Shown here piece by piece: positions 4,036-63,895 of a stretch of DNA of 64,000 nt; position 1 is the first letter of the stretch; each line of letters begins with the position of its first letter. The position numbers and the translations under genes were made by a program. This DNA is from an uncultured Acidobacteriaceae bacterium. Its GTDB lineage: Bacteria > Acidobacteriota > Terriglobia > Terriglobales > Acidobacteriaceae. The DNA lies in contig CAWFTQ010000007.1 of assembly GCA_963818865.1 (NCBI GenBank), positions 273,763 through 337,762 of the forward strand, in the 5' to 3' direction. The notes under the pieces were generated by a model. That model worked only from the letters and a program-made list of their open reading frames with translations. It ran no database searches and had not been told where the DNA came from.

Positions 4036-4115
4036 CTGCGTCCGCTCCTTCTTCCGACGATGCTTTTCTTTGTCGTCCTTTTAGTGTACAAGCTGGTATT
4101 TACGAGGAGGATTCT

Positions 4116-5571: not shown

Positions 5572-5654
5572 ATCTGCTATGAAAAATGCTGCCTGAGAAA
5601 TTGTGCTGGGCTGAAATGCCGGCCCTCGATCACTCGTTGATTTATTTCAAACAC

Positions 5655-5693
5655 AAAAAACCGGGAGCAGAATCTGGGCAGATCTGCTCCCGG
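5655..5693 (-). terminator. Rho-independent terminator for the 5706-6137 gene
   Basis: 11-bp stem CCGGGAGCAGA/TCTGCTCCCGG (5661-5693), followed on the minus strand by a T6 run (A6 at 5655-5660 on plus). Confidence 0.7.
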
Positions 5694-5705
5694 TGCGCCG
5701 AGCGG

Positions 5706-6137: not shown

Positions 6138-6598
6138 TGGAATCTCCTGGTGTTTTGTGGCATGTCCGAGACCTCGCACCCGGCGGTTACCGAGTGACGT
6201 GGGCTCAGATTGAGTGGAGAAACAGCGAGGTCAGGAGAATTGCAATTACCGACGGCGTGGCCGGCATGCAAACATCAGCTTCGCGGGACCGGCTGCAGAG
6301 CAGGTTTACGAAGTGATTTCACTATGAAGGATACTCGCGCTAGAGTCCAACGCAAAATATTTATTGGTCGCATCAGATGAGCGCGAGCATTGTGGCTACG
6401 ACCTCTCGGCTGCGCTTTTGCCGGACAGCCGAGGCGGCTGGCTCTACAAGAGTTGCGTCTCCGCTTGATGATGCATGTATGCCGTTGAATTGATTTTCTG
6501 CACGTTTGGCCGCGCGCGTTTGCCAAAGGCCCGCCCGATACGAGAACATACAAGGTTTGCACATCCATACAAATTCTTACTGAGGAAGCGGACAAAAA

Positions 6599-8005: not shown

Positions 8006-8072
8006 GGACCGTTCTCACCAGGCCGAACGTTGATCATGTTATAATTACCATGGTTATCGCGAGGTGACCATT

Positions 8073-8306
8073 ATGAAGACAATTGCTGCGGGCGAGTTCA
8101 AGGCACGATGCCTGCAAGTTATGGAAGATGTGCGGACCAAACGCACCCCGGTGCTGATCACGAAACGGGGCAAGCCGTTGGCCAAACTGGTTCCGGCTGA
8201 CGACAAGCCTCCCGAGATCTTCGGCTGTCTTGCCGGGAAGATTGAGATTCTCGGCGACATCGTTTCTCCTGTCACTGCTCTCGAGGACTGGGAGAGCTTG
8301 AAGTGA
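8073..8306 (+). CDS. Phd/YefM-type antitoxin
   Basis: GAGGTG lies 6 nt before the ATG at 8073. MKTIAAGEFKARCLQVMEDV...PVLITKRGKPLAKLVP. The stop overlaps the PIN gene start (GTGA). Confidence 0.8.
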   Translation: MKTIAAGEFKARCLQVMEDVRTKRTPVLITKRGKPLAKLVPADDKPPEIFGCLAGKIEILGDIVSPVTALEDWESLK

Positions 8307-8698
8307 TTCTGCTGGACACGCACGTTTTGCTGTGGATGGTTTCGAGTCCAGGCAGGCTTTCGCGAGTCGCAGTGGGCGAAATCCGCAGGGCTCAACGGGC
8401 AGGCGGCTGCGCCATCGCTTCGATCAGCCTTTGGGAGTTGGCCTTACTGTTTGCCAAAGGCACACTGAGAGCTTCCGGCACGATTGAAGCGTCGGTCCGC
8501 GAGATCGTCGAGCGCGCCGCTGTGAATGTGCTCGAAATCACTCCCGATATTGCCGGGCTAGCTATGGCCTTTCCGGAATCCTATCCCAAAGATCCGGGCG
8601 ATCGTCTGATTGGCGCAACTGCGCGGGCCCTGGGACTCACACTGATTACGCAGGACGAGAGAATTCTCGCCAGCCCGCTCGTGCGTACAATTTGGTAG
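8303..8698 (+). CDS. vapC: PIN-domain toxin (VapC)
   Basis: ILLDTHVLLW at the N-terminus and a later DPGDRLI...LITQDERI block, 131 aa. Has a 4-nt overlap with the upstream antitoxin. Confidence 0.85.
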   Translation: MILLDTHVLLWMVSSPGRLSRVAVGEIRRAQRAGGCAIASISLWELALLFAKGTLRASGTIEASVREIVERAAVNVLEITPDIAGLAMAFPESYPKDPGDRLIGATARALGLTLITQDERILASPLVRTIW

Positions 8699-8716
8699 CC
8701 TCATCGCTTTCGAGTC

Positions 8717-10009
8717 TTACGCGATGCGGTTCATTTTCTTGTACTCGTCAAACTTCTCCAAAAACCATTCAATATCTTTCTTCTGCAAATAGTAAGGTGT
8801 CGACAGCCGCAGCTTGTTGGGGTCGCCGCCGCGGATACGTATCTTGTGGGTCTTCCAGATCCAGTTCTCCAGGTCCATGCGTGGGACGGGCGGGACGTTT
8901 ACGGTTACGATGGCGCAGCGCAGGGCGGGATCGGGCGAGGTCCAGGATTCGGCGCCGCGCTTTTTCATTTCATCGAGCATGTAGTCGGCGAGCTTGCGAT
9001 GGCGGCGCTCGATGCGGTCGAGGCCGATGTCATTGGCGAGCTTGATGGAGGCGCGCAGTCCATAGAGAGCGGGAACGTTCGAGCTGCCGATGCGCTGGAA
9101 GCGCTCGGCGCGGAGCTTGGGATCGTCCCAGCCTTCGGTGACGATGGTGTTCCAGAGGCGGTCGATGACTTCGTCGCGCACGTAGAGGAAGCCGGTGCCT
9201 TTGGTAGCCATCAGCCATTTGTGCGGGCTCGACGAGTACATGTCGCAACCAAGATCGTGAACGTTGAGGCGCATCATGCCGATGACATGGGCGCCGTCGA
9301 TGGCGGAGAGAATGCCCTTCGAGCGGGCGAGTGCGCTGAGTTCCTTCGCAGGCAGCACAACGCCGGTGACTGTGGTGATGTGGCTGAAGAAGATGACGCG
9401 GGTGCGGGGAGTGATGGCCTCGTTAAAGAGGTTGAGGACTTGAGCGGCGTCTTTTACCGGGAGGGGCAAGGCTACTTTCTTCACCACCACGCCATAGCGT
9501 TTGGCCTTCAGATTCCAGGGGTGCACGCCCCCGGGATGTTCCTGATCGGTCATGAGGACTTCGTCGCCGGGCTTCATGTCGATGCCGTTGGCGATGTAAC
9601 TATTAGCTTCGGTGGCATTACGGAGCAGCGCGATTTCATCGCGATGGCAGCCCACGAACGCGGCCAGGGGATCGCGAAACTCATTCCAGGCGGCGTATCC
9701 CCAGATGGGATAATCTTCGGGATCTTGCTGGTCCATTTTCTCGGTGGTGGTGTAGCCGTCGAAGATGGCGCGCAGCACGGGCGCGGGGCTGGAGCCGACG
9801 GTGCCGTTGTTGAGGTAAATTTCGTCTTCCGGGATAAGGAATTGCTTACGCATCTCGGCCCAGTAGGCGTCTTCGTTCTTGTCGAACAAAGAGGAATCAG
9901 GAAGTTTGGTGGGGGCGCTGGCGAGTTGAGCGAAGAGATCCCCGCGCAGGGCGGAAGCGGCGGCAAGGCCGGTTACGGCGGTTGAGAGGAAATGGCGGCG
10001 ATCGATCAT
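8717..10009 (-). CDS. Tat-exported class V aminotransferase / cysteine-desulfurase-like PLP enzyme
   Basis: AGGAGG lies before the ATG at 10009. Twin-arginine signal MIDRRHFLSTAVTGLAAASA. PLP-lysine block YSSSPHKWL. Confidence 0.85.
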   Translation of the reverse strand: MIDRRHFLSTAVTGLAAASALRGDLFAQLASAPTKLPDSSLFDKNEDAYWAEMRKQFLIPEDEIYLNNGTVGSSPAPVLRAIFDGYTTTEKMDQQDPEDYPIWGYAAWNEFRDPLAAFVGCHRDEIALLRNATEANSYIANGIDMKPGDEVLMTDQEHPGGVHPWNLKAKRYGVVVKKVALPLPVKDAAQVLNLFNEAITPRTRVIFFSHITTVTGVVLPAKELSALARSKGILSAIDGAHVIGMMRLNVHDLGCDMYSSSPHKWLMATKGTGFLYVRDEVIDRLWNTIVTEGWDDPKLRAERFQRIGSSNVPALYGLRASIKLANDIGLDRIERRHRKLADYMLDEMKKRGAESWTSPDPALRCAIVTVNVPPVPRMDLENWIWKTHKIRIRGGDPNKLRLSTPYYLQKKDIEWFLEKFDEYKKMNRIA

Positions 10010-10227
10010 GGGAACCTCCTGGCTATCGGAAAGACGACGGGTCATGGTACGACTGCGTTGGAAAAGGGGCAAGGGGTACCGCCAGTGTGATTCCGGATCG
10101 TGTACTTTTCCAACCCGGGATAACCTCATGGGAAGGAATATGCGTCTAAATTCTTAGGGGAAAGCTCCGCCCGAGCAGGCCGGGCGTATAATTCGGGTAA
10201 GAGCAGGTCGGGCGCAAAGGGGTATTT

Positions 10228-11445
10228 ATGAAATTGCGATGGTTGGCACTCTCTGTGGCGGTAGCGGCGTTCAGCGCGGTGCCCTGGACGATGGCGCAAA
10301 CACAGCAGCCTGGTCAGAATCCCGGTCAGACGCAGAATCCGGGTCAGACGAATCCCGGTCAAACGAATCCAGGTCAAACCCAGACACAGACGCAAACTCC
10401 AGTTCCGGTTCCAGACACAGACAAGGGCCAGCCGAAAGCCAGCGACGTGCAGAACGCTCCAGCACCACCTCCAGCCAACCTGCCGACGCAGGATGACAGC
10501 CAGATCAAGCACGACGGCGGTAAAAACGACGTAGACGCCATAGGGAACCGCAATGTGGGTTGCGGCCGCGGCGTCGGCAACTGGTACAGCATCGAGAGGC
10601 AAGTGGCCATGGGCCGCTCTTATGCGCAACAGATTGAATCGCAAATTAAGTTAGTGAACGATCCGGTGGTCACAGAGTATGTCAACCGGATTGGGCAGAA
10701 CCTGGTTCGGAACTCGGATGCCCAGGTGCCGTTCACGATTAAGGTGATCGACTCCGACGTCGTGAATGCCATGGCGCTTCCCGGCGGATTCTTCTATGTG
10801 AACTCCGGATTGATTCTGGCTGCCGACGAGGAAGCGGAGCTGGCGGGCGTTATGGCGCACGAAATATCGCATGTCGCGGCCTGCCATCTGGCCCGAGAGC
10901 AGACCCGGGGCACGCTGATGCAACTGGCGACGATTCCTCTGATCTTTGTGGGTGGAGGGATTGGTTATGGGGCTTACGAAGCCGCGGGACCGGCGGCAAT
11001 GCTGGGAATTTTGAAATTCTCGCGTGGCTTCGAAGCTGAAGCTGATTATCTCGGCGTCCAAACCATGTACCGCGCCGGCTACGATCCCTCGGCGTTCGTT
11101 TCGTTCTTCGAAAAAATTCAGGCGATGGAGAAAAAGAAACCGGGAAGCTTGGCGAAGACCTTCGATACCCATCCGCAGACACCGGACCGGATCGAGAAGA
11201 CTCAGGAAGAGATCCGCACGATTCTGCCGGCTAAGGCTCAATACATTGTGACCACCTCGGAGTTCGATGACGTGAAGGCTCGGCTGGCTTCGATTGAAAA
11301 TCGCCACAAAGTGCTGGATCAGAGAGACGAGAACAAGCCGAGTTTGCGGCGAACTTCCAGCAGCGGCAGCGATAAAACGGGAGACAGCACGAATGACGAT
11401 GATCGTCCGACTTTAAAGCGCCGGGATGATTCGTCCTCGAATTAG
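10228..11445 (+). CDS. Secreted M48-family zinc metalloprotease
   Basis: Signal peptide, HExxH (MAHEISHVAA), and the M48-type downstream block EAEADYLG. Confidence 0.85.
   Translation: MKLRWLALSVAVAAFSAVPWTMAQTQQPGQNPGQTQNPGQTNPGQTNPGQTQTQTQTPVPVPDTDKGQPKASDVQNAPAPPPANLPTQDDSQIKHDGGKNDVDAIGNRNVGCGRGVGNWYSIERQVAMGRSYAQQIESQIKLVNDPVVTEYVNRIGQNLVRNSDAQVPFTIKVIDSDVVNAMALPGGFFYVNSGLILAADEEAELAGVMAHEISHVAACHLAREQTRGTLMQLATIPLIFVGGGIGYGAYEAAGPAAMLGILKFSRGFEAEADYLGVQTMYRAGYDPSAFVSFFEKIQAMEKKKPGSLAKTFDTHPQTPDRIEKTQEEIRTILPAKAQYIVTTSEFDDVKARLASIENRHKVLDQRDENKPSLRRTSSSGSDKTGDSTNDDDRPTLKRRDDSSSN
10309..10398 (+). repeat. In-frame low-complexity tandem repeat (QNPGQT / TQ) inside the M48 gene
   Basis: Repeated CCGGGTCAGACG-like units encode PGQNPGQTQNPGQTNPGQTNPGQTQTQTQT. 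Confidence 0.6.
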
Positions 11446-32933: not shown

Positions 32934-34043
32934 ATGCTACGCTGTCGGACTACAACCCTTCTCGCTTCTCCGATTCTGTTCGCTTCGGTTCTGGTTTACG
33001 GGCAGGCGAACTCAGACGGAAAAACTCAGCCTGCTCCGTCGGCTTCCTCGACTAAACAGCCAAGTGATCCAACTGAGGCGCCGAGTCCCGCTTCGATCCC
33101 TACTAATGCGCCGCGTATATCCAGGGAAACCCGCTTACAGATTATCCGCGATTTTGAGACTCAACTGGTTTATGCGAGGACTGCCTTTCCCATGGGAACC
33201 AAGGGGCTGCAGTTGAAAGAGGGAACGATCACCCCTAATGGTATCGAATTGGAGCAGATGCTAAACCTCTGGGGACCGGCGGTAAAGCCGGGTGATCCCG
33301 CGCACATTTCCTTTGTCCAGATCAAGAACGACCACATTCACTTCGAGATCAATGGCGGACCGGTACGCAGGCAAAAATGGTATCAGCGCGTGCAGATCTC
33401 CGGAACCTACGGTCAGCCCGTGGCGGGCGGGGAAGGGCCGCAAACCAATGCGCATGGATCTTACGTGGATCTTTATTTCGACAAATATGTTCCTGAGATG
33501 ACGGGAGCTCAGTTGCGAAATCTGTTGTATCCGGTGCTCGATTTCAACGCCCGAAACAAGGAGCAAGCCTACCTCGACACCGTGCCTCCCAAGGTGAAGG
33601 CGGCGATTCAAGCGCATCACGTGCTGGTAGGGATGAATCAGGAGATGGTGCTCCATGCCAAGGGCAAACCTCCGAAAAAAGTTCGGGAGCGGGCCGGTGA
33701 AACGGAATACGAGGAATGGATTTACGGCGAGTCGCCGGCGGACGTCGATTTCGTTCGTTTTGTAGGCGATGAAGTGGTTCGGGTCGAGACCATGAAAGTA
33801 GATGGCCAAAAAATCGTTCGCACGGAGAAAGAAGTTATCCTGCAGCCGGACAAAGATAAAGATCAAGAAGCGAAAAAAGAGCCGAACGAGCGTCCAGCGA
33901 ACCCTCCAAGCCTGAAGCGTCCCGGGGAAGATTCGGACGACGTTCCCAAGCCCTCCAACGGAGCTCCGCCGCCGATTGTTATGCCACCACCAGACTTCCC
34001 CCAACCTCCAAGCGGGCCCGGAGAGTTAGTACCGGCGCGATAA
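32934..34043 (+). CDS. Secreted hypothetical protein with a Pro/Lys-rich C-terminus
   Basis: Signal peptide MLRCRTTTLLASPILFASVLVYGQA. No family recognised. Confidence 0.6.
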   Translation: MLRCRTTTLLASPILFASVLVYGQANSDGKTQPAPSASSTKQPSDPTEAPSPASIPTNAPRISRETRLQIIRDFETQLVYARTAFPMGTKGLQLKEGTITPNGIELEQMLNLWGPAVKPGDPAHISFVQIKNDHIHFEINGGPVRRQKWYQRVQISGTYGQPVAGGEGPQTNAHGSYVDLYFDKYVPEMTGAQLRNLLYPVLDFNARNKEQAYLDTVPPKVKAAIQAHHVLVGMNQEMVLHAKGKPPKKVRERAGETEYEEWIYGESPADVDFVRFVGDEVVRVETMKVDGQKIVRTEKEVILQPDKDKDQEAKKEPNERPANPPSLKRPGEDSDDVPKPSNGAPPPIVMPPPDFPQPPSGPGELVPAR

Positions 34044-51303: not shown

Positions 51304-52179
51304 ATGAAAACCGCCAAACTGGCAAACTCCTACCGCGTTAACGATGGAAAACATTTCCGGTTGAAGGACTTTGATCCGGCTGACACTGGGCACTGGCACT
51401 CCGTCGAAGAAGCCAAAGACCAGGTACAGAAGGACATCCAACGCATGGAGGAGTTGCAAGCCATGCTTTATGCCCAGGATCGATGGTCGCTGCTGCTGAT
51501 TTTTCAGGCCCTGGACGCCGCCGGCAAAGACGGTACGATTAAGCACGTCATGTCAGGAGTGAATCCTGAAGGTTGCCAGGTGCACTCGTTCAAAGCGCCC
51601 TCTGCGAGGGAATTGCAGCATGATTTCCTATGGCGCACGACATGGGATTTGCCGGAGCGCGGCCACATTGGGATTTTCAATCGGTCTTATTACGAAGAGG
51701 TGCTGGTGGTGCGGGTGCATCCTACGGTGCTCGAGAGCCAGTTGGTGCCGCCCTCTTTGATCACGAAGGATATTTGGAAAGAACGCTTTGAAGATATTCA
51801 CTCGTTTGAGCGTCACATGGCGCGCAACGGCACCGTGATCCGCAAATTCTTTCTCCATCTTTCGAAGAAGGAGCAGAAGCAGCGATTCCTGGCGCGGCTC
51901 GATGAACCGGAAAAACATTGGAAGTTTTCCGAAGCGGATATTCACGAGCGCAAATATTGGGACGATTATCAGCAAGCCTATGATGAAATGATTTGCCACA
52001 CCGCCAGCAAACATGCTCCGTGGTATGTGGTTCCGGCGGACAATAAATGGTTCACACACCTGGTGGTCGCGGCTGCGATAGTGGAAACGCTGGAAGAACT
52101 TGATCTGTGCTATCCGAAGGTGGACGCGGCGAAGCTCAAGGAAATTCAGGCTGCCCGCAAACTGCTCGGGAAAAAGTGA
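51304..52179 (+). CDS. ppk2: Polyphosphate kinase 2 family (polyphosphate:nucleotide phosphotransferase)
   Basis: Walker-A-like ALDAAGKDGTIKHV and the IFNRSYYEEVLVVRVH block. Confidence 0.9.
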   Translation: MKTAKLANSYRVNDGKHFRLKDFDPADTGHWHSVEEAKDQVQKDIQRMEELQAMLYAQDRWSLLLIFQALDAAGKDGTIKHVMSGVNPEGCQVHSFKAPSARELQHDFLWRTTWDLPERGHIGIFNRSYYEEVLVVRVHPTVLESQLVPPSLITKDIWKERFEDIHSFERHMARNGTVIRKFFLHLSKKEQKQRFLARLDEPEKHWKFSEADIHERKYWDDYQQAYDEMICHTASKHAPWYVVPADNKWFTHLVVAAAIVETLEELDLCYPKVDAAKLKEIQAARKLLGKK

Positions 52180-52304
52180 AAGCGGCGTACTGTGGCCGGG
52201 CTTTCTATTCTGGCTGGGCCGCGTTACCATAGCAATGGTTCCGTATTGTTTGCTTTCTTTCTCTTTACTTTCGTTCCATATTCTCTAAATTGGGGGCTTC
52301 GAAC

Positions 52305-55300
52305 ATGGGTGGTCGAAACACGTCTTGCGGGAACAAATCTGGAAAGACTCTGGTAGCGTGGTTGCCGGCATTGTTTGTCACCATACTCGTGCTGTGCCTG
52401 CAGAGTGTGGCGTTCGCGCAAACCAAGCCGGAGCGGCAATCGAAGGCTGTAAAGCCAACCCAATCGACGCCGTCGTCAACTGCGAATGCGGCTAACCAGA
52501 GCGCAAACCCCGACGACAAAGATTCCGGCAAGCCGGAAGACAAACTTTTCAAGGGCATGAAATATCGCATGATCGGCCCGTTCCGTGGCGGACGCTCACT
52601 GACTGCGGCTGGAATTCCCGGCGATCCCACCACCTATTATTTCGGCGCGACCGGCGGGGGTGTGTGGAAGTCGACTGACGGAGCGATGACCTGGTCGCCA
52701 ATATTCGATAAAGAGGGAAGTGGAGACATTGGCAGTCTCGCCGTCGCCAACTCCGATCACAACACGATTTATGTTGGAACTGGCGAGGCCTGCATTCGCG
52801 GAAACATTTCTCATGGAGATGGAGTCTACAAATCGCTCGACGGCGGCAAAACCTGGAAAAACGTCGGCTTGCACGACAGTCGCGCCATCGGCAAAGTTAT
52901 CGTGAATCCGAATAATCCTGACATCGCGTTCGTGGCCGCGCTCGGGCATCCTTTTGGACCGAACACCGAACGTGGCATCTTCCGCACAACCGATGGCGGC
53001 AAGAGCTGGGAAAAAGTTCTTTACAAAGATGAGAACACCGGCGGCATCGATGTGGCCTTCGATCCTCACAACCCGAATATTCTTTTTGCTGCGCTGTGGC
53101 AGGCCCGGCGCACCTCGTGGAGTATGGCAAGCGGCGGCCCGGGCAGCGGACTTTACCGCTCGAATGACGGGGGGACTACCTGGAAGCGGCTGCAAGAGCA
53201 TGGTTTGCCGAAAGGTCCGTATGGACGCATTGGCATCGCCGTGGGTGCTAACTCTGATCGAGTTTATGCGCTCATCGAGGCACACAATCCTGATGGCGGC
53301 CTCTACCGCTCCGACGATGGCGGCGAAACCTGGGAGTTCATTAATCCCAGCCACAGCCTGTGGCAGCGGCCGTGGTACTACATGCACATCATCGCCGATC
53401 CGAGAGATGAAAATGTCGTCTACGTCATGGATGTCGAAACCTATAAATCGACCGATGGCGGCCACTTGTTCAATAGGATCAGAGTTCCGCACGGCGACAA
53501 TCACGGACTATGGATCGATCCCAGAGATACGCGGCGAATGATCGCATCCAACGATGGTGGAGTCACGATCACACTAGATGGCGGCAAGAACTGGACGCGC
53601 GAAGATAATCAACCGACGGCGCAGTTCTACCACGTCATCACGGACACGGCCACGCCGTACCGCGTATACGGTTCGCAGCAGGACAGCGGAACGGTGGCTA
53701 TCGCCAGCCGCAGCGACGATGGCGCCATCGATCGCTCGGACTGGTATGACGTTGGCGGAGGCGAGGCGGGCTACATCGCGCCGTATCCGCCGGACCCGAA
53801 TATTGTTTATGCCGCGGATTATCAGGGCAACATCACGCGCTTCGACAAGCGTATCGGACAGGTCAAATCGATCACCGAGCAGCCTGAGCTTTCCGATGCT
53901 CACGGCGCCGGCAACCTGGAACACCGTTTCCAGTGGACCGCGCCCGTATTGATTTCGTCGCACGATCCCAACACGCTGTATCACGCGGGCGAACGCCTGT
54001 TCAAGACCACGGACGGTGGCGTGCATTGGCAGGCAATCAGTCCGGATCTGACGCGCAATGACAAGACCAAGCAGAATGTTTCCGGGGGTGAAATCACTCT
54101 GGACGATTCTGGTACCGAATACTACGACACGATTTTCGCGCTCGCCGAGTCGCCGATCACCAAAGGGTTGCTGTGGGTGGGCACCGATGACGGTCTGATC
54201 CAGATCACGCGCGATGAAGGAAAAAACTGGACCAATATCACCCCCAAAGATTTGCCGGAGTGGAGCCGCATAAGCCAGATCGAAGCCTCGCCCCACGATG
54301 CCGGTACGGCATACGTTGCCGTGGATCGGCATCAGAGCGACGACCTTAAACCTTACATCTATAAAACCAGCGACTACGGCCAGAGCTGGACGAGACTCAC
54401 CAACGGAATTCCCGATGGTAGTTTTGTTCGAGCCGTCCGCGAAGATCCGAAGCGGCGCGGACTACTTTACGCGGGAACCGAGAACGGTGTGTATGTTTCG
54501 TTCAACGATGGGGCGGCGTGGAAGTCGCTCAAGTTGAATCTACCGACTACGCCGGTGCACGATCTGGTCGTTAAAGACAACGACCTGGTGGTCGCCACGC
54601 ATGGGCGGGCGTTCTGGATTCTGGATGACATCAGTCCGTTGCGGCAGTTCAATGACGACGTGGCGAAGAAGGATGTCCATCTCTACACTCCGGATGCGGC
54701 TTACCGCATTCAAGCGGGTGAAAGCGGCGAGCATCATCCTTCCAAACGGACGGGACAGAATCCTCCGGCGGGTGCTGTGATTTATTACTACTTGAAAGAT
54801 GCGCCCAAGGCGGGGACAGAAACGAAGCTGGAAATTCTTGACTCGACGGGAAAGTTGATTCGTAAGTATTCAAGCACCGAAACGGAATTGCTGGACGAGC
54901 CTCTGGGACCGGACGATAAGAAGCCCGAAAAGGAGATAAAACCGGACGCTGGCTTGAATCGGTTCGTGTGGGATCTGCGCTATGAAGAAGCCCATCGTAT
55001 TCCCGGTTACTACCTTTGGGAGTACAACGCCGGGGCGAAGGGACCGGTAGCGGCGCCCGGCCAATATCAAGTGCGACTGACGGTTGGATCAGAGAGCCAG
55101 GTTGCACCGTTCGAGTTGAAGCTGGATCCGCGGGTGAAGGTGAGCCAGGCAGATCTGGCGCAGCAGTTCAACCTGCAGGCGCAGATTCATGAGGAACTTA
55201 ACCGAGTTTATGACGCGGTCAACCAGATACAGGATGTGCGCTCGCAAGTGGCTGGCCTGAAGCGTCGGTTGCCGGAGAACGCCAGCACGAAAGCCATTTC

Positions 55301-55649
55301 TGCGTCGGCCGACGATCTGGAGAAAAAGCTGGTAGCCGTACGCGATCAAATGGTGAATCTCACCATCAGTGCGAACGAAGATTCACTGGCTTATCCGCCG
55401 CAAATCGATGCGAAGCTCGCCTACCTTGCCATGGACGTAGGCAGCGCGGACTCCGCGCCCACCGAGGCGGAGCAGCTTGAGTTCGAGAAGCTGAAGCGCG
55501 AAAGTGGAGAGTTGCTGAGCCGCTGGGATGATTTGCAGCGTCGCGATCTGGCGGCCTTCCAAAAACTGACGGCGGAGGGCAGCCTGTCCACCGTGGTGGT
55601 TCCACCCGCAGGTCGCGCCGGGGATGCGGAAAACATTGATGCTCACTAG
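52305..55649 (+). CDS. Large secreted Asp-box (BNR)/sortilin-VPS10-like repeat protein
   Basis: At least 10 S-x-D-x-G-x-T-W Asp-boxes (STDGAMTW, SLDGGKTW, TTDGGKSW, SNDGGTTW, SDDGGETW, and others). A TTG at 52290 is an alternative start. Confidence 0.85.
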   Translation: MGGRNTSCGNKSGKTLVAWLPALFVTILVLCLQSVAFAQTKPERQSKAVKPTQSTPSSTANAANQSANPDDKDSGKPEDKLFKGMKYRMIGPFRGGRSLTAAGIPGDPTTYYFGATGGGVWKSTDGAMTWSPIFDKEGSGDIGSLAVANSDHNTIYVGTGEACIRGNISHGDGVYKSLDGGKTWKNVGLHDSRAIGKVIVNPNNPDIAFVAALGHPFGPNTERGIFRTTDGGKSWEKVLYKDENTGGIDVAFDPHNPNILFAALWQARRTSWSMASGGPGSGLYRSNDGGTTWKRLQEHGLPKGPYGRIGIAVGANSDRVYALIEAHNPDGGLYRSDDGGETWEFINPSHSLWQRPWYYMHIIADPRDENVVYVMDVETYKSTDGGHLFNRIRVPHGDNHGLWIDPRDTRRMIASNDGGVTITLDGGKNWTREDNQPTAQFYHVITDTATPYRVYGSQQDSGTVAIASRSDDGAIDRSDWYDVGGGEAGYIAPYPPDPNIVYAADYQGNITRFDKRIGQVKSITEQPELSDAHGAGNLEHRFQWTAPVLISSHDPNTLYHAGERLFKTTDGGVHWQAISPDLTRNDKTKQNVSGGEITLDDSGTEYYDTIFALAESPITKGLLWVGTDDGLIQITRDEGKNWTNITPKDLPEWSRISQIEASPHDAGTAYVAVDRHQSDDLKPYIYKTSDYGQSWTRLTNGIPDGSFVRAVREDPKRRGLLYAGTENGVYVSFNDGAAWKSLKLNLPTTPVHDLVVKDNDLVVATHGRAFWILDDISPLRQFNDDVAKKDVHLYTPDAAYRIQAGESGEHHPSKRTGQNPPAGAVIYYYLKDAPKAGTETKLEILDSTGKLIRKYSSTETELLDEPLGPDDKKPEKEIKPDAGLNRFVWDLRYEEAHRIPGYYLWEYNAGAKGPVAAPGQYQVRLTVGSESQVAPFELKLDPRVKVSQADLAQQFNLQAQIHEELNRVYDAVNQIQDVRSQVAGLKRRLPENASTKAISASADDLEKKLVAVRDQMVNLTISANEDSLAYPPQIDAKLAYLAMDVGSADSAPTEAEQLEFEKLKRESGELLSRWDDLQRRDLAAFQKLTAEGSLSTVVVPPAGRAGDAENIDAH

Positions 55650-56261
55650 ATGGATGCTCACTAGCAAGTTCTCGCTTCTCAGCGAACGGCGCTTTAGCCT
55701 GCCTTCTCGCTGAGAGCCGGGAACTTGTTTTGAGTCTGGCCGTCCGCGGCTCCGTTCGGTGGTATTACTTCCGTGCCACTCCGATGGCACTGTTGTGCCC
55801 TGTACAGCGTGTCCTCAGACTGATAATTTGCCGATAGTGATGCTGATCCTCCCCTGAGGTGATGGCCGATTTGACACGGGGGTGTCTATGAGGTTCATGC
55901 ATCTTTGCTACGCAGCTGTGGGCTTCGCGGTGGCTCGCTGGATATTTCGTCGCCAGCCAGTGGTCGATCCTGTTACGCGGTTGCGTTCTTCGGGCCTTCT
56001 GTAAAAAGTTCTGGCTAAGTATTGGGCGTGCGTGCCCGTTGCGCTTCCATTTCGTCAGCGCACGCCCACTTCCTTTTTTCCGCGCGGAAGTTCTAGCACT
56101 AAGGTTTGCCGGAGTTATCTCTGTTTCGTCCCTGCTTCTCACTACAATTCTGGAAGGACCTCTGCGGTTCGTGGTGATTTACCGCGCGCCTGCAGTTCGC
56201 GATATCTTCTGGCGTCATAGCGCATTGCGCCGGATAGTGATCGGGTCCATGGGAATTCCAG

Positions 56262-57128
56262 GTGCGAACACCGACCACAATCCGCTGGACCACGGCCCTG
56301 CTGGTCGCGGGGCTTCTCGTGCTGGCTCTGCCGCAGCGCGTTCATGCGCAGGACGATCCCAACGAAGCACCACTCGGCGATGTGGCGCGCAGTTTTCGCA
56401 AGAAGGTCGCCTCGCCTGAAGAAGTCGTTATCGATAACGACAATTTTTCCAAAGTAGTGGAAGACGCCGAGAGCCGCAGAGTATCGGGCTCTACTATGGT
56501 GTTCTCGCTCGATCCGGGAGCAAAGAGCTTTCAAGTTTCCTCCCCTGACGTTAGTTGCAGCTTTTCTTTTAGCGCCAGGACCAGTTCGCTGCTCTCCGAT
56601 CCGATTGCACTGGATGAGTTGCCGCGGAGCGAATTGGCCAAATTGGATGGGCCGGCCACGATCGATGGAGATTCGCTGCAGGTCTCGATGCATAACGGAA
56701 CCGCATGGGAGCTGCGCGAAGTAGTGATTGGGCTAACGATCCTGCGGCGCCCTGGCCCCGGCGATGCGGCCGCTTCTTATGGCGCGGCGCGAATTGTGCC
56801 CGCGGTGGCAGATGGTTCTGCACCGCCGGTACAAGACTCTTTTCAGAAACAGCCTGATATCACCGTGCTGTTGCGAGTGAAAGGGTCGGCCGCTCCCTCT
56901 GCTACGGCGTTATTTCGCACCCAACTAAACTTTGCCCTGTTCCCCGATCAGGAGTGGCACTGGGCGATCGTGAGAGCCAAGGGAGTTCCACCGCAACCTC
57001 CAGCTGAAACAACGACGCAACTCGATCAAGTCCCCGGCCAGCTTCCAGTGCCGCCGCTAACCGACCCAGGCCCGCAAACCGCGCCCTTGACTCCGACTCC
57101 TCCTAATCCGGACGCTGCGGTCCACTAA
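56262..57128 (+). CDS. Secreted hypothetical protein with a Pro-rich C-terminus
   Basis: Signal peptide MRTPTTIRWTTALLVAGLLVLALPQRVHA. No family recognised. Confidence 0.55.
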   Translation: MRTPTTIRWTTALLVAGLLVLALPQRVHAQDDPNEAPLGDVARSFRKKVASPEEVVIDNDNFSKVVEDAESRRVSGSTMVFSLDPGAKSFQVSSPDVSCSFSFSARTSSLLSDPIALDELPRSELAKLDGPATIDGDSLQVSMHNGTAWELREVVIGLTILRRPGPGDAAASYGAARIVPAVADGSAPPVQDSFQKQPDITVLLRVKGSAAPSATALFRTQLNFALFPDQEWHWAIVRAKGVPPQPPAETTTQLDQVPGQLPVPPLTDPGPQTAPLTPTPPNPDAAVH

Positions 57129-57207
57129 GACTTCTGCTACCCGCTGCCCGACCCTGCTCAAATCTCACGTGTTAAACTGGGCACGAATCCCACATTAAGG
57201 ACAGGCG

Positions 57208-57903
57208 ATGAAATTTGGAGTCATCATCTTCCCCGGTTCCAACTGCGACCACGATGCTTTCTGGACCATTCAGCAAGTGGCCAGGCAGCCCGTCACGTTT
57301 TTGTGGCACGAATCGCGTGATCTGGAAAATTGTGACGCCATCATCGTCCCGGGAGGATTCGCGTTTGGGGACTACCTGCGGACTGGCGCGATTGCGAAGT
57401 TTTCTCCGGTGATGGAATCTGTGCGTCGCTTTGCCGATGGCGGAGGCCTGGTGTTGGGAATTTGCAATGGCTTCCAGATTCTGTGCGAATCGGGGCTGCT
57501 GCCGGGGGCCCTCATGCGCAACGCCGGGCTGAAATATGTTTGCAAACCGGTGCAGGTGCGGGTGGAAAATGCTCTCACTCCATTTACCAATGCCTGTTCG
57601 AAAGGAGAAGTGTTAACCATCCCTATCGGCCACATGGAGGGAAACTATTTCTGCGATCTGGAAACACTGGATGAGTTGCTGCGCAGCAATCGCATCGTGT
57701 TTCGATATTGCACCGCTGCCGGTGAAATCTCAGGGTCGGCCAATCCAAACGGTTCTCTGGAGAATATCGCTGGCATTTGTAGTGCAGGCGGCAATGTGGT
57801 CGGCATGATGCCTCATCCCGAAAGATCTGCCGAACCCGAACTGGGCTGTACCGACGGAATGAAGATCTTCCAGTCCATGGTGGGTGCGATGGCGAGCAAG
57901 TAG
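57208..57903 (+). CDS. purQ: Phosphoribosylformylglycinamidine synthase, glutaminase subunit
   Basis: FPGSNCDHD, catalytic GICNGFQIL, and MMPHPER. Confidence 0.95.
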
Positions 57904-58056
57904 AACGTCCCAAGGCGGAAATTTCGCAGGTCTTTTTTTCCACAAGATATTCTGCTTGCAAATTGTCCGATTTCTGCTAGTGTCTGCGCAAAGCGCTTCC
58001 CATTTCGACCCTTAGGAACTAAAACGTTCAAAAAACTTTAGGGAGGAGTGTGTCTA

Positions 58057-59304
58057 ATGACATCGAAACAAATTCTTGACGCCTTTTCCGAGACTCTAAT
58101 GCAGGATGAACGCATTCTGAGCCCTCGCGAACGGGAATTGCTGACGAGTCTTTTGCAAAATGCGAAGGCTGCAGCCGGTAATCTAGAAATTCAATCGGCT
58201 GTAACTGCTGCCATCGCTCGGTCCGTTGGTGAGACGGTGGCACAACGCGCTTTCGCATTGCTGGGAAGCAGCATCGTGGAGCAGATTGTGGCACGTGGTG
58301 CGGCACCGTCTGCTACGGAAGAAAACATTCCTGCCACCGTGTTTGGCGGTCCGCAGCCCCCGAGCGGCCCGCAGCCGCCTTCCGGGCCTCTGCCTAAACC
58401 GGGGCCGCAGCCTCCTAGCGGACCCCAACCCCCAAGTACGAGTATTAATCTGCGCCGCAAAAGTACATACGGCACCGAAGAGGGAATTCCTGCGACCGTG
58501 TTCGCTGGCCCGCAGCCCCCGAGCGGACCGCAGCCACCTTCTACAGCACCGAAGGGCCCACCATCAGGCCCGCAGCCTCCCAGCGGACCACAGCCTCCCA
58601 GCCTCAGTCTCCGGCGCGAAAACGCATCCGTGACGCGGGGAGCGCAGGAAAGCGAACCTGGCTCGGGGAGCGGTGTCGCGGTGTTGGAGGAACCTGCGGT
58701 CGTTCGGGCACAATGCGTCGTCTTGGATGAGTTCCTGGCACCGCAGGAGATGGCACAACTGATTCGCTATTCGCTGGAGCACGAAGCGCAGTTCACCACC
58801 AGCGAAGTGATTTCTCCGAGCGGCGAACCCGGAGTAACCGATTACAGCCATCGTCGTTCGCGAGTGCTGATGGAGCTGGGACCGCACGAGGAAGTCATCC
58901 TCAATCGAATTCGTGGAGTTCTTCCAAGGGTGCTGCAGCAACTGGGGATGGAGGAGTTTCCGGTCACCCACACGGAAGTGCAGATCACAGCCAGCAATGA
59001 TGGAGACTTCTTCCATGCACACTGCGACGATGCGCAAGAGATGATTGCCTCTCGCCGGTTGACGTTCGTGTATTTTTTCCATCGCGAACCAAGCCAGTTT
59101 GAGGGAGGGGAGCTGCGACTTCACGACTCGAAGAAGACCGGCGCACATCCCCTCAGTATCGGCAGCTATCAGGCGGTTGTGCCGCAGCAGAATCAAATCG
59201 TGTTCTTCCCATGTTCGACACTGCACGAAATCACCCCTGTACAGTGCCGGTCACGGGCCTTTGCGGACGGCCGCTTCACGGTGAACGGATGGCTACACCA
59301 GTAA
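58057..59304 (+). CDS. Fusion protein: helical N-domain + duplicated (GPQPPS)n proline-rich segment + C-terminal 2OG-Fe(II) oxygenase (prolyl-4-hydroxylase-type) domain
   Basis: AGGAGG lies 9 nt before the ATG at 58057. HxD in FFHAHCDD, distal His in STLHEITPV, and Arg in GRFTVNGW. The block RLTFVYFFH...FEGGELRL is typical of the 2OG-FeII_Oxy_3 type. Confidence 0.8.
   Translation: MTSKQILDAFSETLMQDERILSPRERELLTSLLQNAKAAAGNLEIQSAVTAAIARSVGETVAQRAFALLGSSIVEQIVARGAAPSATEENIPATVFGGPQPPSGPQPPSGPLPKPGPQPPSGPQPPSTSINLRRKSTYGTEEGIPATVFAGPQPPSGPQPPSTAPKGPPSGPQPPSGPQPPSLSLRRENASVTRGAQESEPGSGSGVAVLEEPAVVRAQCVVLDEFLAPQEMAQLIRYSLEHEAQFTTSEVISPSGEPGVTDYSHRRSRVLMELGPHEEVILNRIRGVLPRVLQQLGMEEFPVTHTEVQITASNDGDFFHAHCDDAQEMIASRRLTFVYFFHREPSQFEGGELRLHDSKKTGAHPLSIGSYQAVVPQQNQIVFFPCSTLHEITPVQCRSRAFADGRFTVNGWLHQ
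58318..58617 (+). repeat. In-frame tandem duplication (2 x ~50 codons) containing eight exact GPQPPS hexapeptides
   Basis: Copy 1 is EENIPATVFGGPQPPSGPQPPSGPLPKPGPQPPSGPQPPSTSINLRRK. Copy 2 is EEGIPATVFAGPQPPSGPQPPSTAPKGPPSGPQPPSGPQPPSLSLRRE. Confidence 0.85.
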
Positions 59305-60335
59305 AAGACACGGCATGGCTTGAGTGGATTGCAGGCCTGATGGCAGCAGCATCGCGGCAACGACACACCGCGGTGCTGCCTCCGCAGCAGTTTCATTGCC
59401 TGCTGGAAGAGTTGCCGCTGCACTTGATTCCGCAGCATAGTTTAGATCGCCAGTTCCTCCGGGCTGACCCTCCTCATCCGCTAGTCTTCAACCCCGAATG
59501 TTTGGTTCTGCCCGCCGGGCAGATGCCGCCAGACTTGGAAGCGCAGCGCGAACTGCTGGAAGGTTTCAGTATGCAAAGCACTATAGCCTGGGTTCGTGAC
59601 CCTGCAACCAGCTCGTTGCATCCGTTCTGGCTTGGTCCCCAGTTCGAAGCGGTAGTTTCAAGTCTGCATGCGGGGAAACTTGCTCCAGCGGCGTTGCCGC
59701 AGGCGCAGCGGCTTTTGCTTGCGGCGGCTGGCATCCTGATGCCCGCGGATTATGCGCAACGCCGGCGTGCGCGGTGGGCGGAGATAGTCAGCACCTGCAG
59801 ACCAGTTTTTCGGGAAAGGAATTACGTTCCCCTCAGTGACTTGATTCACCCCTTCAATCTCGCTGCTTTGCGGCGCTACTACCGGCATGCGATCCGGCGT
59901 GGAGGGATTTGGCTGGGGGACGAGCAAAGCCCGCGGCGTTATGTTGCCCATAATGAGCCTGTGGCCCGCTACTTCCATCATCAGATCACGAATGCGCTTA
60001 GCGGCATCGTGGGCGAACCAATCAAACCTTCCTACGTTTATTTGGCGTCTTACTTGAGCGGCGCCGAGCTGAAGAAGCACACCGACCGGGAACAATGCGA
60101 GTTCAGCGTGACGCTGTGTCTGGATTATTCTCCCGAACCCGAACTGGCAACCCCGTGGCCGATTCGTCTGGACACCTCCGAAGGCACGGTTGTTGCTTAT
60201 CAGGCACTGGGCGATGGCTTAATCTACCGGGGAACAAAGGTACCTCATTACCGCGATGTTCTGGCCCCCGGGCATACCTCGACATCGATTTTCTTCCATT
60301 ATGTTCCGGCGGATTTTTCTGGGCCTCTCGACTAG
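59289..60335 (+). CDS. Second 2OG-Fe(II)-oxygenase-like / cupin-fold hypothetical protein, translationally coupled to the upstream gene
   Basis: The ATG at 59289 lies 16 nt before the upstream stop. Candidate facial triad HTD (LKKHTDRE) plus a distal His (KVPHYRD). Confidence 0.6.
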   Translation: MATPVKDTAWLEWIAGLMAAASRQRHTAVLPPQQFHCLLEELPLHLIPQHSLDRQFLRADPPHPLVFNPECLVLPAGQMPPDLEAQRELLEGFSMQSTIAWVRDPATSSLHPFWLGPQFEAVVSSLHAGKLAPAALPQAQRLLLAAAGILMPADYAQRRRARWAEIVSTCRPVFRERNYVPLSDLIHPFNLAALRRYYRHAIRRGGIWLGDEQSPRRYVAHNEPVARYFHHQITNALSGIVGEPIKPSYVYLASYLSGAELKKHTDREQCEFSVTLCLDYSPEPELATPWPIRLDTSEGTVVAYQALGDGLIYRGTKVPHYRDVLAPGHTSTSIFFHYVPADFSGPLD

Positions 60336-60348: not shown

Positions 60349-62892
60349 TTATTGCAGTCCGGAAATTACATACAGCCCGGATTTGACTTGGTAATAACTG
60401 AAGGCAAAGCGCGAACCGTCGCGGGTTACGACCACCGGGGCTATGGATACCAAACCGGTAGTCGTGTCGGGCTGCAGTTCCCGAACCTTCGTTTGTTCGC
60501 CAGAGACTATATTGACTTTGTACACCGTAGCCGGAATCTGCCCCCCACGATATCCATAAATTGACGATTTGTCTTCGGTCCACTGAAGCGGGATGAAATC
60601 GGCCTGAAGGTTAGGAATGGAATGGGGAGCGCCCCCTGCGATGGGATAGAGATTAAGTGGTTTGTTGGCCAGAATGAATTGACCGTCGGGCGAAACCAAC
60701 CCGCCAGTAATTCCTTCCGGGGTGATAGGCGTCGGTTTTCCTCCATCCAGATTTACCAGATAGCAGCGGACTCCGTGGCCAGGCTCGTTGCCATTGATCG
60801 TGATTCGTTTGCCGTCGGCCAGAAAGTGAGAAGAGCCGTTATGGATGCGTTCCAGCCCAGTGACTGGAACTGAACGGGGTGCGCCGGGGCCGATCGGGTA
60901 GAGCGTGATTCGGCCTGGGCTGCCCACGATAATTGCGATTGCCCATTTGCCGTCCGGAGAAAGGCCGCCTGCGCTGCCCTCGCCGAGTTGCACAGGAGGG
61001 GATCCGTCGATCCTACGAATGTCGACCAGGTAGTTTGGCGGAGCCGCCTCGCTGGCATCCTCAAACAGGACGGATTGCCCGTCAGGCGAAATGTCTTTGG
61101 CGATATCCCAATCGTGCCAGGAAATTTCAACGGCCTTGCCTTCGCGCGCGGCGGTCGCCATGGCGGTACGTTCGGAATCGAGGCTCACCAGGACGCGGCC
61201 GTCCGGGGCCATGTCCTGTAAAGTCATCCCGACCGGAATTCTTAGAACAGTGCGAATGTTCCCCTTGGCATCTGAGGCACGCAAGCCCCGGGTATAGCCA
61301 TTTTCGGCGGCGGTGAACCAGATTTCTTTGCCGCTGGAACTCCAAGCCAGACCATCTGCGGAGTCCCACTCCTGAGATAGCGTTGTGACGTGTCCGGAAA
61401 GATCAACCAGGCAAACCAGGCCGCGATCATCCCACAGCGACGGATGGTTGATGAAAGCAATCTTATCGGCTTGGGGCGACAGCCGGACATGACTGATCCA
61501 GCCATTGCTCTGATACAAGACCTTTCCTAACGGGTACTCGACCCGGTCGCGTCCCTCCGCGTGGTGAACCACGGCGAGTTCACCGCTTGGGCTCCAGTCT
61601 GCCCAGCGAACATCTTCAAGGACTTCTCTGGGAGAACCTCCAGCCAGAGGCGCACGAGCCAGCGTACCCCCTTCAATTTCCAAGTGAGCACCGTGTGCGC
61701 CGTGAAGCGCGAGCGCCATTTCGCCCGTACTCGAGATGGCCAGCAAGTTTGCGTCTTCGAGGTTCATGGCTTGAGTTGAATTCGACTCGCCAATCGTGGA
61801 AAAAAGCTGCAACGGCTTCCCATTCCAAGCGGCGCCGTAGACGACCGAACGAAAATCGGGCGCAAAGCGCGCCGAGTAGACGGTACCTTCCCCAAAAGTT
61901 ACGCGGCGGTAGGCGGGAGATCGTATCTTCGGTGGCGACGGTTTACCCAAAAGCAGCAGCGCTGCAAACAGAAGCGCTCCCGCTGCCGCCCATGGAAGCA
62001 TTTTCGCTCTCCACTTGGGAGGCGCGAGTTTTGTTATTCGTTCACCGGAAGCATTGGAAAGGGTTTCCAGGGCGAACCCGAGGTCGCGCGCCGATTGAAA
62101 GCGCTTCTCGGGATCTTTCTCCAGGCAATGCCGCACGATCTGTTGAAAGGATACGGGGATTCCGGCCTGTTCCAGATCGATCTCGGGAGGGGTTTCCCGC
62201 AGGACCGCAGTGATAGTGTCGACTTCGGTCTCGCCGCGAAACGCTCGTCGACCGGCCAGCATTTCGTAAAGAATCGCGCCCACGCTGAAGATGTCGCTGC
62301 GGTGGTCTACCGGCTTACCCCGCAGTTGCTCCGGAGCCATATAAGCCACGGTGCCGAGTACCATGCCACTTTTGGTAATCGTGGTTAAGTCTTCCACCGT
62401 GCGGCCGGATTCATCAGGCCCAGATTGCAGCTTGGCCACACCGAAGTCGAGAATCTTGATGCGGCCATCGCTGGTCACGAATAAATTCTCAGGCTTGAGA
62501 TCCCGATGAATAATACGGCGGTCATGCGCCGCTATGAGACCTTGTACGATTTGAAGCGAGTATTCAACCGCCACGCGAACTGGCAATGCGCCTTCCCATA
62601 GCCGCTTGCGCAGAGTCTTGCCTTCCAGCAACTCGCAAACAATGTAAGGAGCTCCTTCGTCGAGACCGAAGTCATAAATCGCCACAATATTGGGATGATT
62701 CAGAGCCGCAGCAGCGCGGGCTTCCAACTCGAAACGACGGAGATGATCGGGGTTGCCGCTGGAGCCTGGACGAATCAGTTTCAGGGCGACGTCGCGGTCC
62801 AGCCTCTCGTCCCGGGCTCGGAAAACCTCACCCATGGCTCCGGCCCCAATTTTATCGAGGACTCGGTAGTGACCTATGACTCGGTCAGTCAT
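60349..62892 (-). CDS. Ser/Thr protein kinase with one TM segment and a C-terminal TolB-like beta-propeller
   Basis: GAGAMGEVF, HRDLKPENL, DFG and APE motifs. TM segment MLPWAAAGALLFAALLLLG. Repeated SPDG blades. The ATG at 62892 is preferred to 63042. Confidence 0.9.
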   Translation of the reverse strand: MTDRVIGHYRVLDKIGAGAMGEVFRARDERLDRDVALKLIRPGSSGNPDHLRRFELEARAAAALNHPNIVAIYDFGLDEGAPYIVCELLEGKTLRKRLWEGALPVRVAVEYSLQIVQGLIAAHDRRIIHRDLKPENLFVTSDGRIKILDFGVAKLQSGPDESGRTVEDLTTITKSGMVLGTVAYMAPEQLRGKPVDHRSDIFSVGAILYEMLAGRRAFRGETEVDTITAVLRETPPEIDLEQAGIPVSFQQIVRHCLEKDPEKRFQSARDLGFALETLSNASGERITKLAPPKWRAKMLPWAAAGALLFAALLLLGKPSPPKIRSPAYRRVTFGEGTVYSARFAPDFRSVVYGAAWNGKPLQLFSTIGESNSTQAMNLEDANLLAISSTGEMALALHGAHGAHLEIEGGTLARAPLAGGSPREVLEDVRWADWSPSGELAVVHHAEGRDRVEYPLGKVLYQSNGWISHVRLSPQADKIAFINHPSLWDDRGLVCLVDLSGHVTTLSQEWDSADGLAWSSSGKEIWFTAAENGYTRGLRASDAKGNIRTVLRIPVGMTLQDMAPDGRVLVSLDSERTAMATAAREGKAVEISWHDWDIAKDISPDGQSVLFEDASEAAPPNYLVDIRRIDGSPPVQLGEGSAGGLSPDGKWAIAIIVGSPGRITLYPIGPGAPRSVPVTGLERIHNGSSHFLADGKRITINGNEPGHGVRCYLVNLDGGKPTPITPEGITGGLVSPDGQFILANKPLNLYPIAGGAPHSIPNLQADFIPLQWTEDKSSIYGYRGGQIPATVYKVNIVSGEQTKVRELQPDTTTGLVSIAPVVVTRDGSRFAFSYYQVKSGLYVISGLQ

Positions 62893-63145
62893 GCAAGAAC
62901 GCCCCGGAAGGCATGTTAGGGGTGCATGTGCACTGCAGTCAATCACCGAATAACAAACTTTCTGGATCCGTCTAACATGAGAAACTTGCCCTAGGCAGCC
63001 CCGCTGTTTATTATCAAGGCAGTTCGGGGCCGGATTCACCATGTCGTGCTATAATTTCTGTTCGCCTGATTTATCGAGGCAGCCTGTGATTCCCTCTACG
63101 GGCGAATCCCGCGCCAATCAAGATCATTAAATACGAGGTCTAGCT

Positions 63146-63895
<750 letters not shown>

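Follow-up and report, generated by a model that had tools for sequence, protein, structure and literature searches.

To our knowledge very few cases of bacterial protein prolyl hydroxylation are known, for example the Pseudomonas enzyme PPHD acting on EF-Tu and the collagen-like prolyl 4-hydroxylase (P4H) of Bacillus. In Dictyostelium and Toxoplasma the enzyme PhyA acts on Skp1, and vCPH of PBCV-1 and CrP4H accept Pro-rich repeat peptides. Tpa1, Ofd1 and OGFOD1 are prolyl 3-hydroxylases of uS12, and in Tpa1 two double-stranded beta-helix (DSBH) units are fused, the second of which is non-catalytic. A precedent for a heterodimeric 2-oxoglutarate (2OG) oxygenase is given by the fungal enzyme TlxI-J (PMC11880133). 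In the present study, a locus was analysed in a 64,000-nucleotide (nt) stretch of DNA, referred to as the window, from an uncultured Acidobacteriaceae bacterium (contig CAWFTQ010000007.1). Here the open reading frame (ORF) 58057-59304 encodes a helical N-terminal domain (N-domain), a Pro-rich repeat and a prolyl-hydroxylase-like Fe(II)/2OG oxygenase domain (C-domain) in one polypeptide, and it is followed by the gene for a second DSBH protein, called partner D. The ORF product appears to belong, as its larger subunit, to a conserved Fe(II)/2OG oxygenase module of two proteins. No description of an enzyme-repeat fusion of this kind or of an acidobacterial prolyl hydroxylase was found in the literature searched. 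The features of the two genes are given below.

58057..59304, forward strand: ORF of 415 amino acids (aa) with N-domain, Pro-rich repeat and prolyl-hydroxylase-like Fe(II)/2OG oxygenase
58057..58299, forward strand: conserved 4-helix N-domain, aa 1-81, from the AlphaFold2 helices, with D-E-R-I-L-S-x-x-E-R-E-L-L ... G-E-T-V-A-Q-R
58315..58473, forward strand: repeat module A, aa 87-139, TEENIPATVFG-(GPQPPS)2-GPLPKP-(GPQPPS)2-TSINLRRKSTYG
58474..58632, forward strand: repeat module B, aa 140-192, TEEGIPATVFA-(GPQPPS)2-TAPKGPPS-(GPQPPS)2-LSLRRENASV
58633..58704, forward strand: non-repetitive disordered linker, aa 193-216, with a predicted local distance difference test (pLDDT) score below 50
58705..59301, forward strand: DSBH catalytic domain, aa 217-415, from PF13640 and Foldseek
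59020..59028, forward strand: H322-C-D324, first two Fe(II) ligands, from invariant columns and alignment to DdPhyA
59224..59226, forward strand: H390, distal Fe(II) ligand (LHEITPV), invariant
59272..59274, forward strand: R406, probable 2OG C5-carboxylate ligand (RFTVNGW), invariant
59289..60335, forward strand: partner D, 348 aa, C-terminal half a DSBH, with a 16-nt overlap across the stop codon of the ORF 58057-59304

The C-domain matched PF13640 (2OG-FeII_Oxy_3) over aa 309-414 with 64.7 bits, the cutoff being 27. An AlphaFold2 model of the ORF was built from 48 homologues; aa 3-81 were predicted as helical (pLDDT 64-79), aa 79-216 as unstructured (pLDDT 30-40) and aa 217-415 as a confident DSBH with pLDDT up to 96. 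The three-part architecture read by the initial annotation was confirmed by Pfam, AlphaFold2 and the homologue alignment. In Foldseek searches against the PDB the best matches were all protein prolyl hydroxylases, namely PHD2 (E 4.5e-10), Pseudomonas PPHD (TM 0.68-0.71, target-normalised), Dictyostelium PhyA, Tpa1 and vCPH. The family profile also matched PhyA (3.7e-6) and Tpa1 (7e-4, 22 bits) by sequence. The residues H322, D324, H390 and R406, proposed earlier as the metal triad and the 2OG-binding Arg, were found to be invariant among the 48 homologues and are kept in the active homologues of four further lineages; in dead paralogues the R406 equivalent is lost along with the His and Asp ligands. 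Homologues in Myxococcus, Gloeobacter and the locus L088, which stand alone or have another fusion, share 44-48% identity with the catalytic domain. The profile matches and the predicted model support a prolyl-hydroxylase fold, and the domain falls within a known superfamily as an ordinary member; its regiochemistry, and even its prolyl specificity, are presumed.

The active site was also compared with that of characterised enzymes. Strict P4Hs share a Tyr located three residues ahead of the first His (PHD2 Y310, CrP4H Y140; PMC4396695). In the present family this position is an invariant Phe, Phe319, which aligns with the Tyr of DdPhyA (Y-I-K-H-R-D). A conserved Arg lies at the opening of the prolyl-hydroxylase active site (PHD2 R322; PMC4396695), and its counterpart is present here as invariant S332 and R333, the S-R-R motif being aligned with DdPhyA and Tpa1 in a sequence alignment only.

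The locus resembles each of the described systems in part. With PHD2, PPHD and PhyA it shares the DSBH fold, the H-x-D...H...R ligands and a cytoplasmic product, and the S-R-R motif C-terminal to HxD is common to PhyA; however, the identity is only 14-19%, Y310 of PHD2 is replaced as stated above, and the present locus has in addition a helical domain at the N-terminus, the Pro-rich repeat and an obligatory partner gene for a second DSBH protein. Tpa1 and its relatives gave the top structural-alignment identity (21-23%), have the motif GDF...H-x-D...SRR[IL][ST]F in common with this family and likewise involve two DSBH units, and relatives of the present protein are labelled 'Tpa1-like' in the source databases. 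The two units are fused in Tpa1, whereas here they are separate polypeptides, the ORF 58057-59304 has a single DSBH and D keeps H-x-D...H; similarity of D to a Pfam family, and hence to the Tpa1 C-terminal domain, was not detectable. CrP4H and vCPH (5c5t among the matches) have the P4H fold and hydroxylate short tandem Pro-rich units, but their substrates are separate secreted or viral proteins and the present repeat is neither G-X-Y nor SPPPP. TlxI-J (PDB 7vbq), which is among the best structural matches of D, is likewise encoded by two adjacent DSBH genes, and catalytic loss in one member of the pair, seen here in L088 gene C and in the Myxococcus protein Mx_188, is also found in TlxI (PMC11880133). 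It differs in being a fungal small-molecule (meroterpenoid) enzyme without sequence relationship, and the heterodimer is here a putative one.

Partner D gave nothing above noise in Pfam, NCBIfam or PDB sequence searches, while more than 2200 homologues with 70-93% identity were found. The model of D had a pLDDT of 73.7, and Foldseek matched its C-terminal DSBH with PPHD, PHD2, TlxI-J and SnoK at E of about 1e-5, in accordance with the earlier mention of a downstream oxygenase. D contains an invariant H264-x-D266 and H320; the H-x-D and the downstream His are retained in every lineage inspected, and the C-terminal signature H-x-D-R-x-Q-C-E...H-[YFW]-R...TS[TA]S..FHY is kept across phyla. The N-terminal domain of D, of about 200 aa, has a well-predicted model and received no fold assignment. 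D lies immediately 3' of the hydroxylase gene in 85 of the 86 acidobacterial loci, mostly with an overlap of 13-16 nt, and it is translationally coupled to the ORF 58057-59304. An origin of D as a diverged paralogue of the C-domain was considered and rejected, as hhalign gave a probability of 0.6% and no detectable sequence homology; the two are related by fold only.

The pairing of the hydroxylase with D was also found in Gloeobacter, Myxococcus, the distant acidobacterium L087 and the loci L088, L092 and L093, and the layouts differ from lineage to lineage. In Gloeobacter kilaueensis a tight operon contains an extracytoplasmic function (ECF) sigma factor, a Ser/Thr kinase-TPR protein, the N-domain-repeat-hydroxylase, D and cpYpsA. 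Myxococcus stipitatus encodes a 236-aa hydroxylase without N-domain or repeat (Mx_P4H236) together with a 'B-type' DSBH protein, and the next genes are a degenerate 188-aa hydroxylase-like protein (Mx_188) and D; the same layout was observed in L092. In L088, gene A encodes the N-domain and an active hydroxylase with a non-Pro linker of 40 aa between them and has B as its partner, whereas gene C, the partner of D, carries the N-domain, (AFPPxPP)n and an oxygenase domain from which the His, Asp, His and Arg have been lost. Catalytically dead P4H-like partners of D occur in L088, Myxococcus and L092. The L088 cluster looks like a subfunctionalisation of the single acidobacterial gene; this four-gene cluster (2265-6364) adjoins a Mu-type transposase. 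In L093 a standalone 162-aa protein with the N-domain and C-terminal Pro/Gly-rich repeats (GGDPSTIPPA x4; 3296-3784) is followed by a GT8/glycogenin-like glycosyltransferase (3789-4862; PF01501 25.0 bits, cutoff 24.3) and then by the hydroxylase-D pair, while in L091 the hydroxylase is followed by a standalone 108-aa N-domain without repeats. Because the layouts vary across lineages in this way, the conserved core is the hydroxylase-like protein with D, and the N-domain and the Pro-rich element are separable from it.

The N-domain showed 20 invariant columns in the homologue alignment and no family match above noise in Pfam, NCBIfam or PDB sequence searches. It is rare, only 151 clusters at 50% identity being found among 1.84e9 representatives. 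Standalone proteins of N-domain and repeat among the short matches of the representative search were mostly contig-end fragments or frameshifted reads, and the only convincing standalone N-domain cases are those of L093 and L091. A protein search yielded at least 2017 relatives of 335-440 aa with the same three-part architecture; the organism-named ones are annotated as Sulfotelmatobacter, Acidoferrum or Acidobacteriaceae. When one genome per species was scanned, 295 species genomes were found to encode a relative, and the best 80 of these were all Acidobacteriaceae, Sulfotelmatobacter or Aquilonibacter metagenome-assembled genomes (MAGs), several of them with isolate names like bog, palsa and SPRUCE.

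The Pro-rich segment consists of two 53-aa modules in tandem, with the consensus T-E-E-x-I-P-A-T-V-F-x-(GPQPPS)2-spacer-(GPQPPS)2-x-S-[IL]-x-L-R-R. The two copies and the eight exact GPQPPS hexapeptides reported earlier (aa 98, 104, 116, 122, 151, 157, 171 and 177), with the accompanying GPLPKP and GPPS variants, were reproduced in translation. The collagen/extensin-like label given to the segment did not hold: Gly occurs at every 6th residue in GPQPPS and not at every 3rd, so the G-X-Y periodicity of a collagen-like protein is missing, and a secreted protein of the extensin or hydroxyproline-rich glycoprotein type was rejected as the SPPP motif and a signal peptide are absent and the maximum hydropathy window is low. 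In the hydropathy scan no hydrophobic N-terminus or transmembrane segment was found in the ORF 58057-59304 or in D, the maximum 19-residue Kyte-Doolittle mean of the former being 1.21. The scan is in agreement with the lack of a signal peptide stated by the initial annotation and confirms, as far as hydropathy can tell, a cytoplasmic product.

The expansion of the repeat had also been called recent, which was not borne out. Modules A and B are 71% identical in nucleotides (82% over the best 68-nt stretch) and use differing codons at 18 of the 37 conserved residues, so the duplication is not recent but old or strongly diverged. A recent slippage duplication of the module is ruled out by this identity and by the near-absent signal of Tandem Repeats Finder, which returned a weak 8-nt array only. 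Between any two of the eight GPQPPS units, 4.4 of 18 nucleotides differ on average; every one of these differences is synonymous, and exchanges between the AGC and TCC serine families are among them. Selection was tested by comparing the two modules position by position, so that the units were not chosen by identity. At the GPQPPS positions 24 of 24 residues are identical while 11 of the 24 codons differ, whereas only 13 of 27 residues are identical at the other aligned positions (Fisher p = 1.7e-5). The GPQPPS hexapeptide is under purifying selection, and it is therefore the peptide motif itself which is constrained, not a mere Pro-rich composition.

The segment was found to vary widely within the family. 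In 115 close homologues it spans 64-169 aa with 0-12 PQPP cores (median 3). The PQPP core was counted 441 times in these homologues, with biased flanks that give [AG]-P-Q-P-P-[SNQG]. Close relatives carry a single module, IPATVF-G-(GPQPPS)2-APKDRPA-(GPQPPS)1-3-[IL]SLR, in which the flanks IPATVF and [IL]SLR are conserved, and the window protein is a duplication of this whole single module. More distant members of full length have retained both N-domain and oxygenase and place unrelated tandem Pro-rich units between them, such as PRPPSP, PLPPSPAPGPPG, PPRPPSPGPPSPG and PPLPPSPAPGPPG, or GPGPRPP, AFPPPPP, GPHPGTPGTP and LPGVPMRIHPPDA. In P0454 a linker of only 6% Pro connects a clear N-domain to an active hydroxylase. 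Members with and without repeats have the same catalytic domain and, in the place of the substrate-enclosing finger loop, the same D-Y-x-x-R-R-S-R-V-L loop. As disordered, extended, repetitive and length-tolerant elements, the repeats resemble the swinging-arm linkers of E2 and those of TonB, and one relative is auto-named TonB; they differ in that the hexapeptide is exact despite synonymous divergence and that the L093 element is a C-terminal tail which links nothing. Two hypothetical proteins of the window, each with a signal-peptide-like N-terminus and no Pfam match, end in Pro-rich tails with a PQPP core, VPPQPPAE (nt 56991; protein 56262-57128, forward strand) and DFPQPPSGPGE (nt 33999; protein 32934-34043, forward strand), where about 0.1 such motifs are expected by chance in the window.

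The reading favoured here, with a confidence that is about evenly balanced, is a two-subunit Fe(II)/2OG protein hydroxylase acting on a substrate in trans, with the N-domain serving oligomerisation or targeting and the repeat serving as a polyproline-II (PPII) tether with docking motifs. By profile and model the C-domain looks like an active protein prolyl hydroxylase of the PHD/PPHD/PhyA/Tpa1 structural class, and together with D it would most likely hydroxylate a prolyl residue of a separate cytoplasmic protein. By analogy with TlxI-J, a heterodimer, or with the paired DSBH units of Tpa1, a hetero-oligomer would be likely. The 80-aa helical N-domain may be a portable oligomerisation or targeting module, and the Pro-rich repeat may be a disordered PPII-type tether, growing and shrinking via module duplication. 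In the clade of the window protein, the [AG]-P-Q-P-P-[SNQG] units would probably act also as short docking motifs for a partner. The analysis shows the fold, the catalytic residues, the disorder, the coupling of the two genes in an operon, the variable nature of the repeat and the selection on the hexapeptide; we infer prolyl hydroxylation itself, complex formation and the tether or docking role. Since the catalytic domain and the finger-loop region are the same with or without repeats, a conserved substrate other than the repeat is indicated. Some observations weigh against this picture. A pure tether leaves the exact conservation of the hexapeptide unexplained, and the combination of N-domain and repeat persists on the standalone 162-aa protein of L093, where there is nothing to tether, and on the L088 gene C paralogue, which has lost all catalytic residues. 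Also, the profiles of the two subunits have no detectable sequence homology, and the model of D is of low confidence around the putative metal ligands.

The initial annotation had proposed the repeat as a built-in substrate, and of this idea the selection on the motif and the occurrence of a repeat on the dead L088 paralogue stand in its favour, while the variability of the repeat and its absence from active members do not. In this form the N-domain would serve for recognition or as a leader, and hydroxylation of the Pro-rich units would take place in cis or in trans, by the cis catalytic domain, by a second copy in an oligomer or by D; the repeat could then change its conformation or its binding in a switch that depends on O2, 2OG and Fe, possibly with glycosylation afterwards in some lineages. 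This is possible but rather doubtful. It would account for a hexapeptide held by purifying selection while the synonymous sites diverged, for the recurrence of a P-x-P-P core in most lineages and for the L088 arrangement, in which an active paralogue without repeat adjoins a catalytically dead one that carries it. The order of genes in L093 (N-domain-repeat protein, GT8-like glycosyltransferase, hydroxylase-D pair) recalls PhyA and the glycogenin-like Gat1 acting on the hydroxyproline of Skp1, the GT8/glycogenin-like family being the one which in protists elongates the glycan attached to the Skp1 hydroxyproline (10.1101/764241), and algal and viral P4Hs accept Pro-rich repeat peptides (PMC4396695). 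On the other hand, the repeat is not obligatory for the catalytic domain, since it is missing from Mx_P4H236, L088 gene A, P0454 and other active members in which the presumed substrate-binding loop is unchanged, and it also occurs without an active cis domain in L088 gene C and the 162-aa protein of L093. The Pro-rich part was found to behave largely as a variable or absent linker, an outcome named beforehand as counting against the idea: length, copy number and motif vary, and the segment is absent from Myxococcus. The motifs differ widely by lineage without visible co-variation of the enzyme, the P4H-specific Tyr is an invariant Phe, and the AlphaFold2 model leaves the repeat undocked from the active site, where the earlier proposal had asked whether it could reach. 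Each of the arrangements in L093 and L088 was seen at one locus and might be a coincidence. A wider version, in which N-domain and Pro-rich repeat form a leader-and-core substrate cassette for the hydroxylase-D pair, with hydroxylation of its prolines followed in some lineages by glycosylation, and with enzyme and substrate fused in the acidobacterial clade, appears unlikely.

A spacer made by slippage, expanding neutrally as a low-complexity segment without sequence-specific role, would fit the freely varying length and copy number, the replacement of the segment by non-Pro linkers and a weak compositional match to the inter-domain linker of 2-oxoglutarate dehydrogenase E2 (E 0.26). It is quite improbable in view of the full identity of the hexapeptide residues between modules of which the other positions are about half diverged, of the biased residues flanking the PQPP cores and of the conserved IPATVF and [IL]SLR flanks. 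Still more remote is a translational sensor, in which the X-P-P codons tie the synthesis of the catalytic domain and its coupled partner to EF-P or YebC. The protein contains at least 16 consecutive Pro-Pro pairs, the downstream gene is translationally coupled, and a YebC/TACO1-family gene lies 3.8 kb away (63146-63895, forward strand); PQPPS, however, is not among the strongest stalling motifs known. YebC promotes translation through Pro-rich stretches (PMC12234827), but the pair has no yebC nearby in Gloeobacter, Myxococcus, L088, L092 or L093, and the synteny of yebC, which is kept only within one clade, is no evidence of a functional link and may be coincidence.

The surroundings of the two genes were examined for signals and neighbours, and the following further features were noted.

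57915..57937, forward strand: terminator-like hairpin with T-run 3' of purQ, consensus match only
58040..58048, forward strand: Shine-Dalgarno-like AGGGAGGAG, about 9 nt ahead of the ATG, read from the sequence
60349..63042, reverse strand: Ser/Thr protein kinase having a large C-terminal domain, in convergent orientation to D with a 14-nt gap

The ORF 58057-59304 is open from the ATG at 58057, and identical ends were called in three NCBI MAGs; a strong Shine-Dalgarno sequence, GGGAGGAG, lies 9 nt 5' of this ATG. The hairpin separating purQ from the hydroxylase gene suggests that the ORF and D may form a two-gene unit with its own transcript. A scan for sigma-70-like promoters 5' of the ORF found none, such a scan being uninformative for Acidobacteria. 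Alternative frames over the repeat, 58191-58475 on the reverse strand and 58226-58633 on the forward strand, were rejected as genes and are by-products of the CCN/GGN-rich sequence, the antisense frames being a Gly-rich mirror of the Pro codons. In the closest species-representative genome (L030, about 4290, corresponding to about 58345 of the window) a 1-nt insertion frameshifts the gene inside the Pro-rich repeat, and about 10 metagenomic clusters (P0241, P0242, P0245, P0259, P0263 and others) show an out-of-frame Arg/Ala-rich translation beyond the N-domain. These frameshifts are probably assembly errors at C-homopolymers; phase variation is possible.

Ser/Thr kinases stand beside the module in three of seven independent contexts, namely the window, Gloeobacter kilaueensis (L090 1379-4987, preceded by an ECF sigma factor, PF07638) and L093, where Ser/Thr kinase-TPR genes (1-279, 8056-10954) and an ECF sigma factor form the flanks; the ECF sigma factor occurs in two of these contexts. 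This neighbourhood suggests a possible link to signalling. The genes at 51304-57903, conserved in all related genomes, encode a PPK2 polyphosphate kinase, a sortilin/VPS10-BNR protein of 1119 aa with a signal peptide, a secreted hypothetical protein of 288 aa and purQ. A role in anti-phage defence was also considered and set aside, since PADLOC gave generic 2OG and kinase domain matches only.

Undescribed so far are the partner, which is obligatory and lacks a Pfam match, the portable N-domain and the Pro-rich cassette under selection, and nothing in the locus is categorically new. The locus defines a widespread module in which a prolyl-hydroxylase-fold enzyme and another DSBH protein are combined with a portable N-domain that may or may not bear repeats, and the module ranges over Acidobacteriota, Gloeobacter, Myxococcus and further lineages. 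If the substrate cassette were true, it would represent a bacterial cytoplasmic switch responsive to O2, 2OG and Fe that feeds ECF-sigma and Ser/Thr-kinase signalling, and a prokaryotic counterpart of the PhyA-Skp1 or PHD-HIF logic. If the repeat is not hydroxylated, nor any other protein, the family would still offer a clean case of a selected short linear motif in a bacterial disordered linker. If O2-dependent hydroxylation of the repeat or of another protein does take place, the module would be a candidate sensor of oxygen or of a metabolite in bacteria that are abundant in peat soil.

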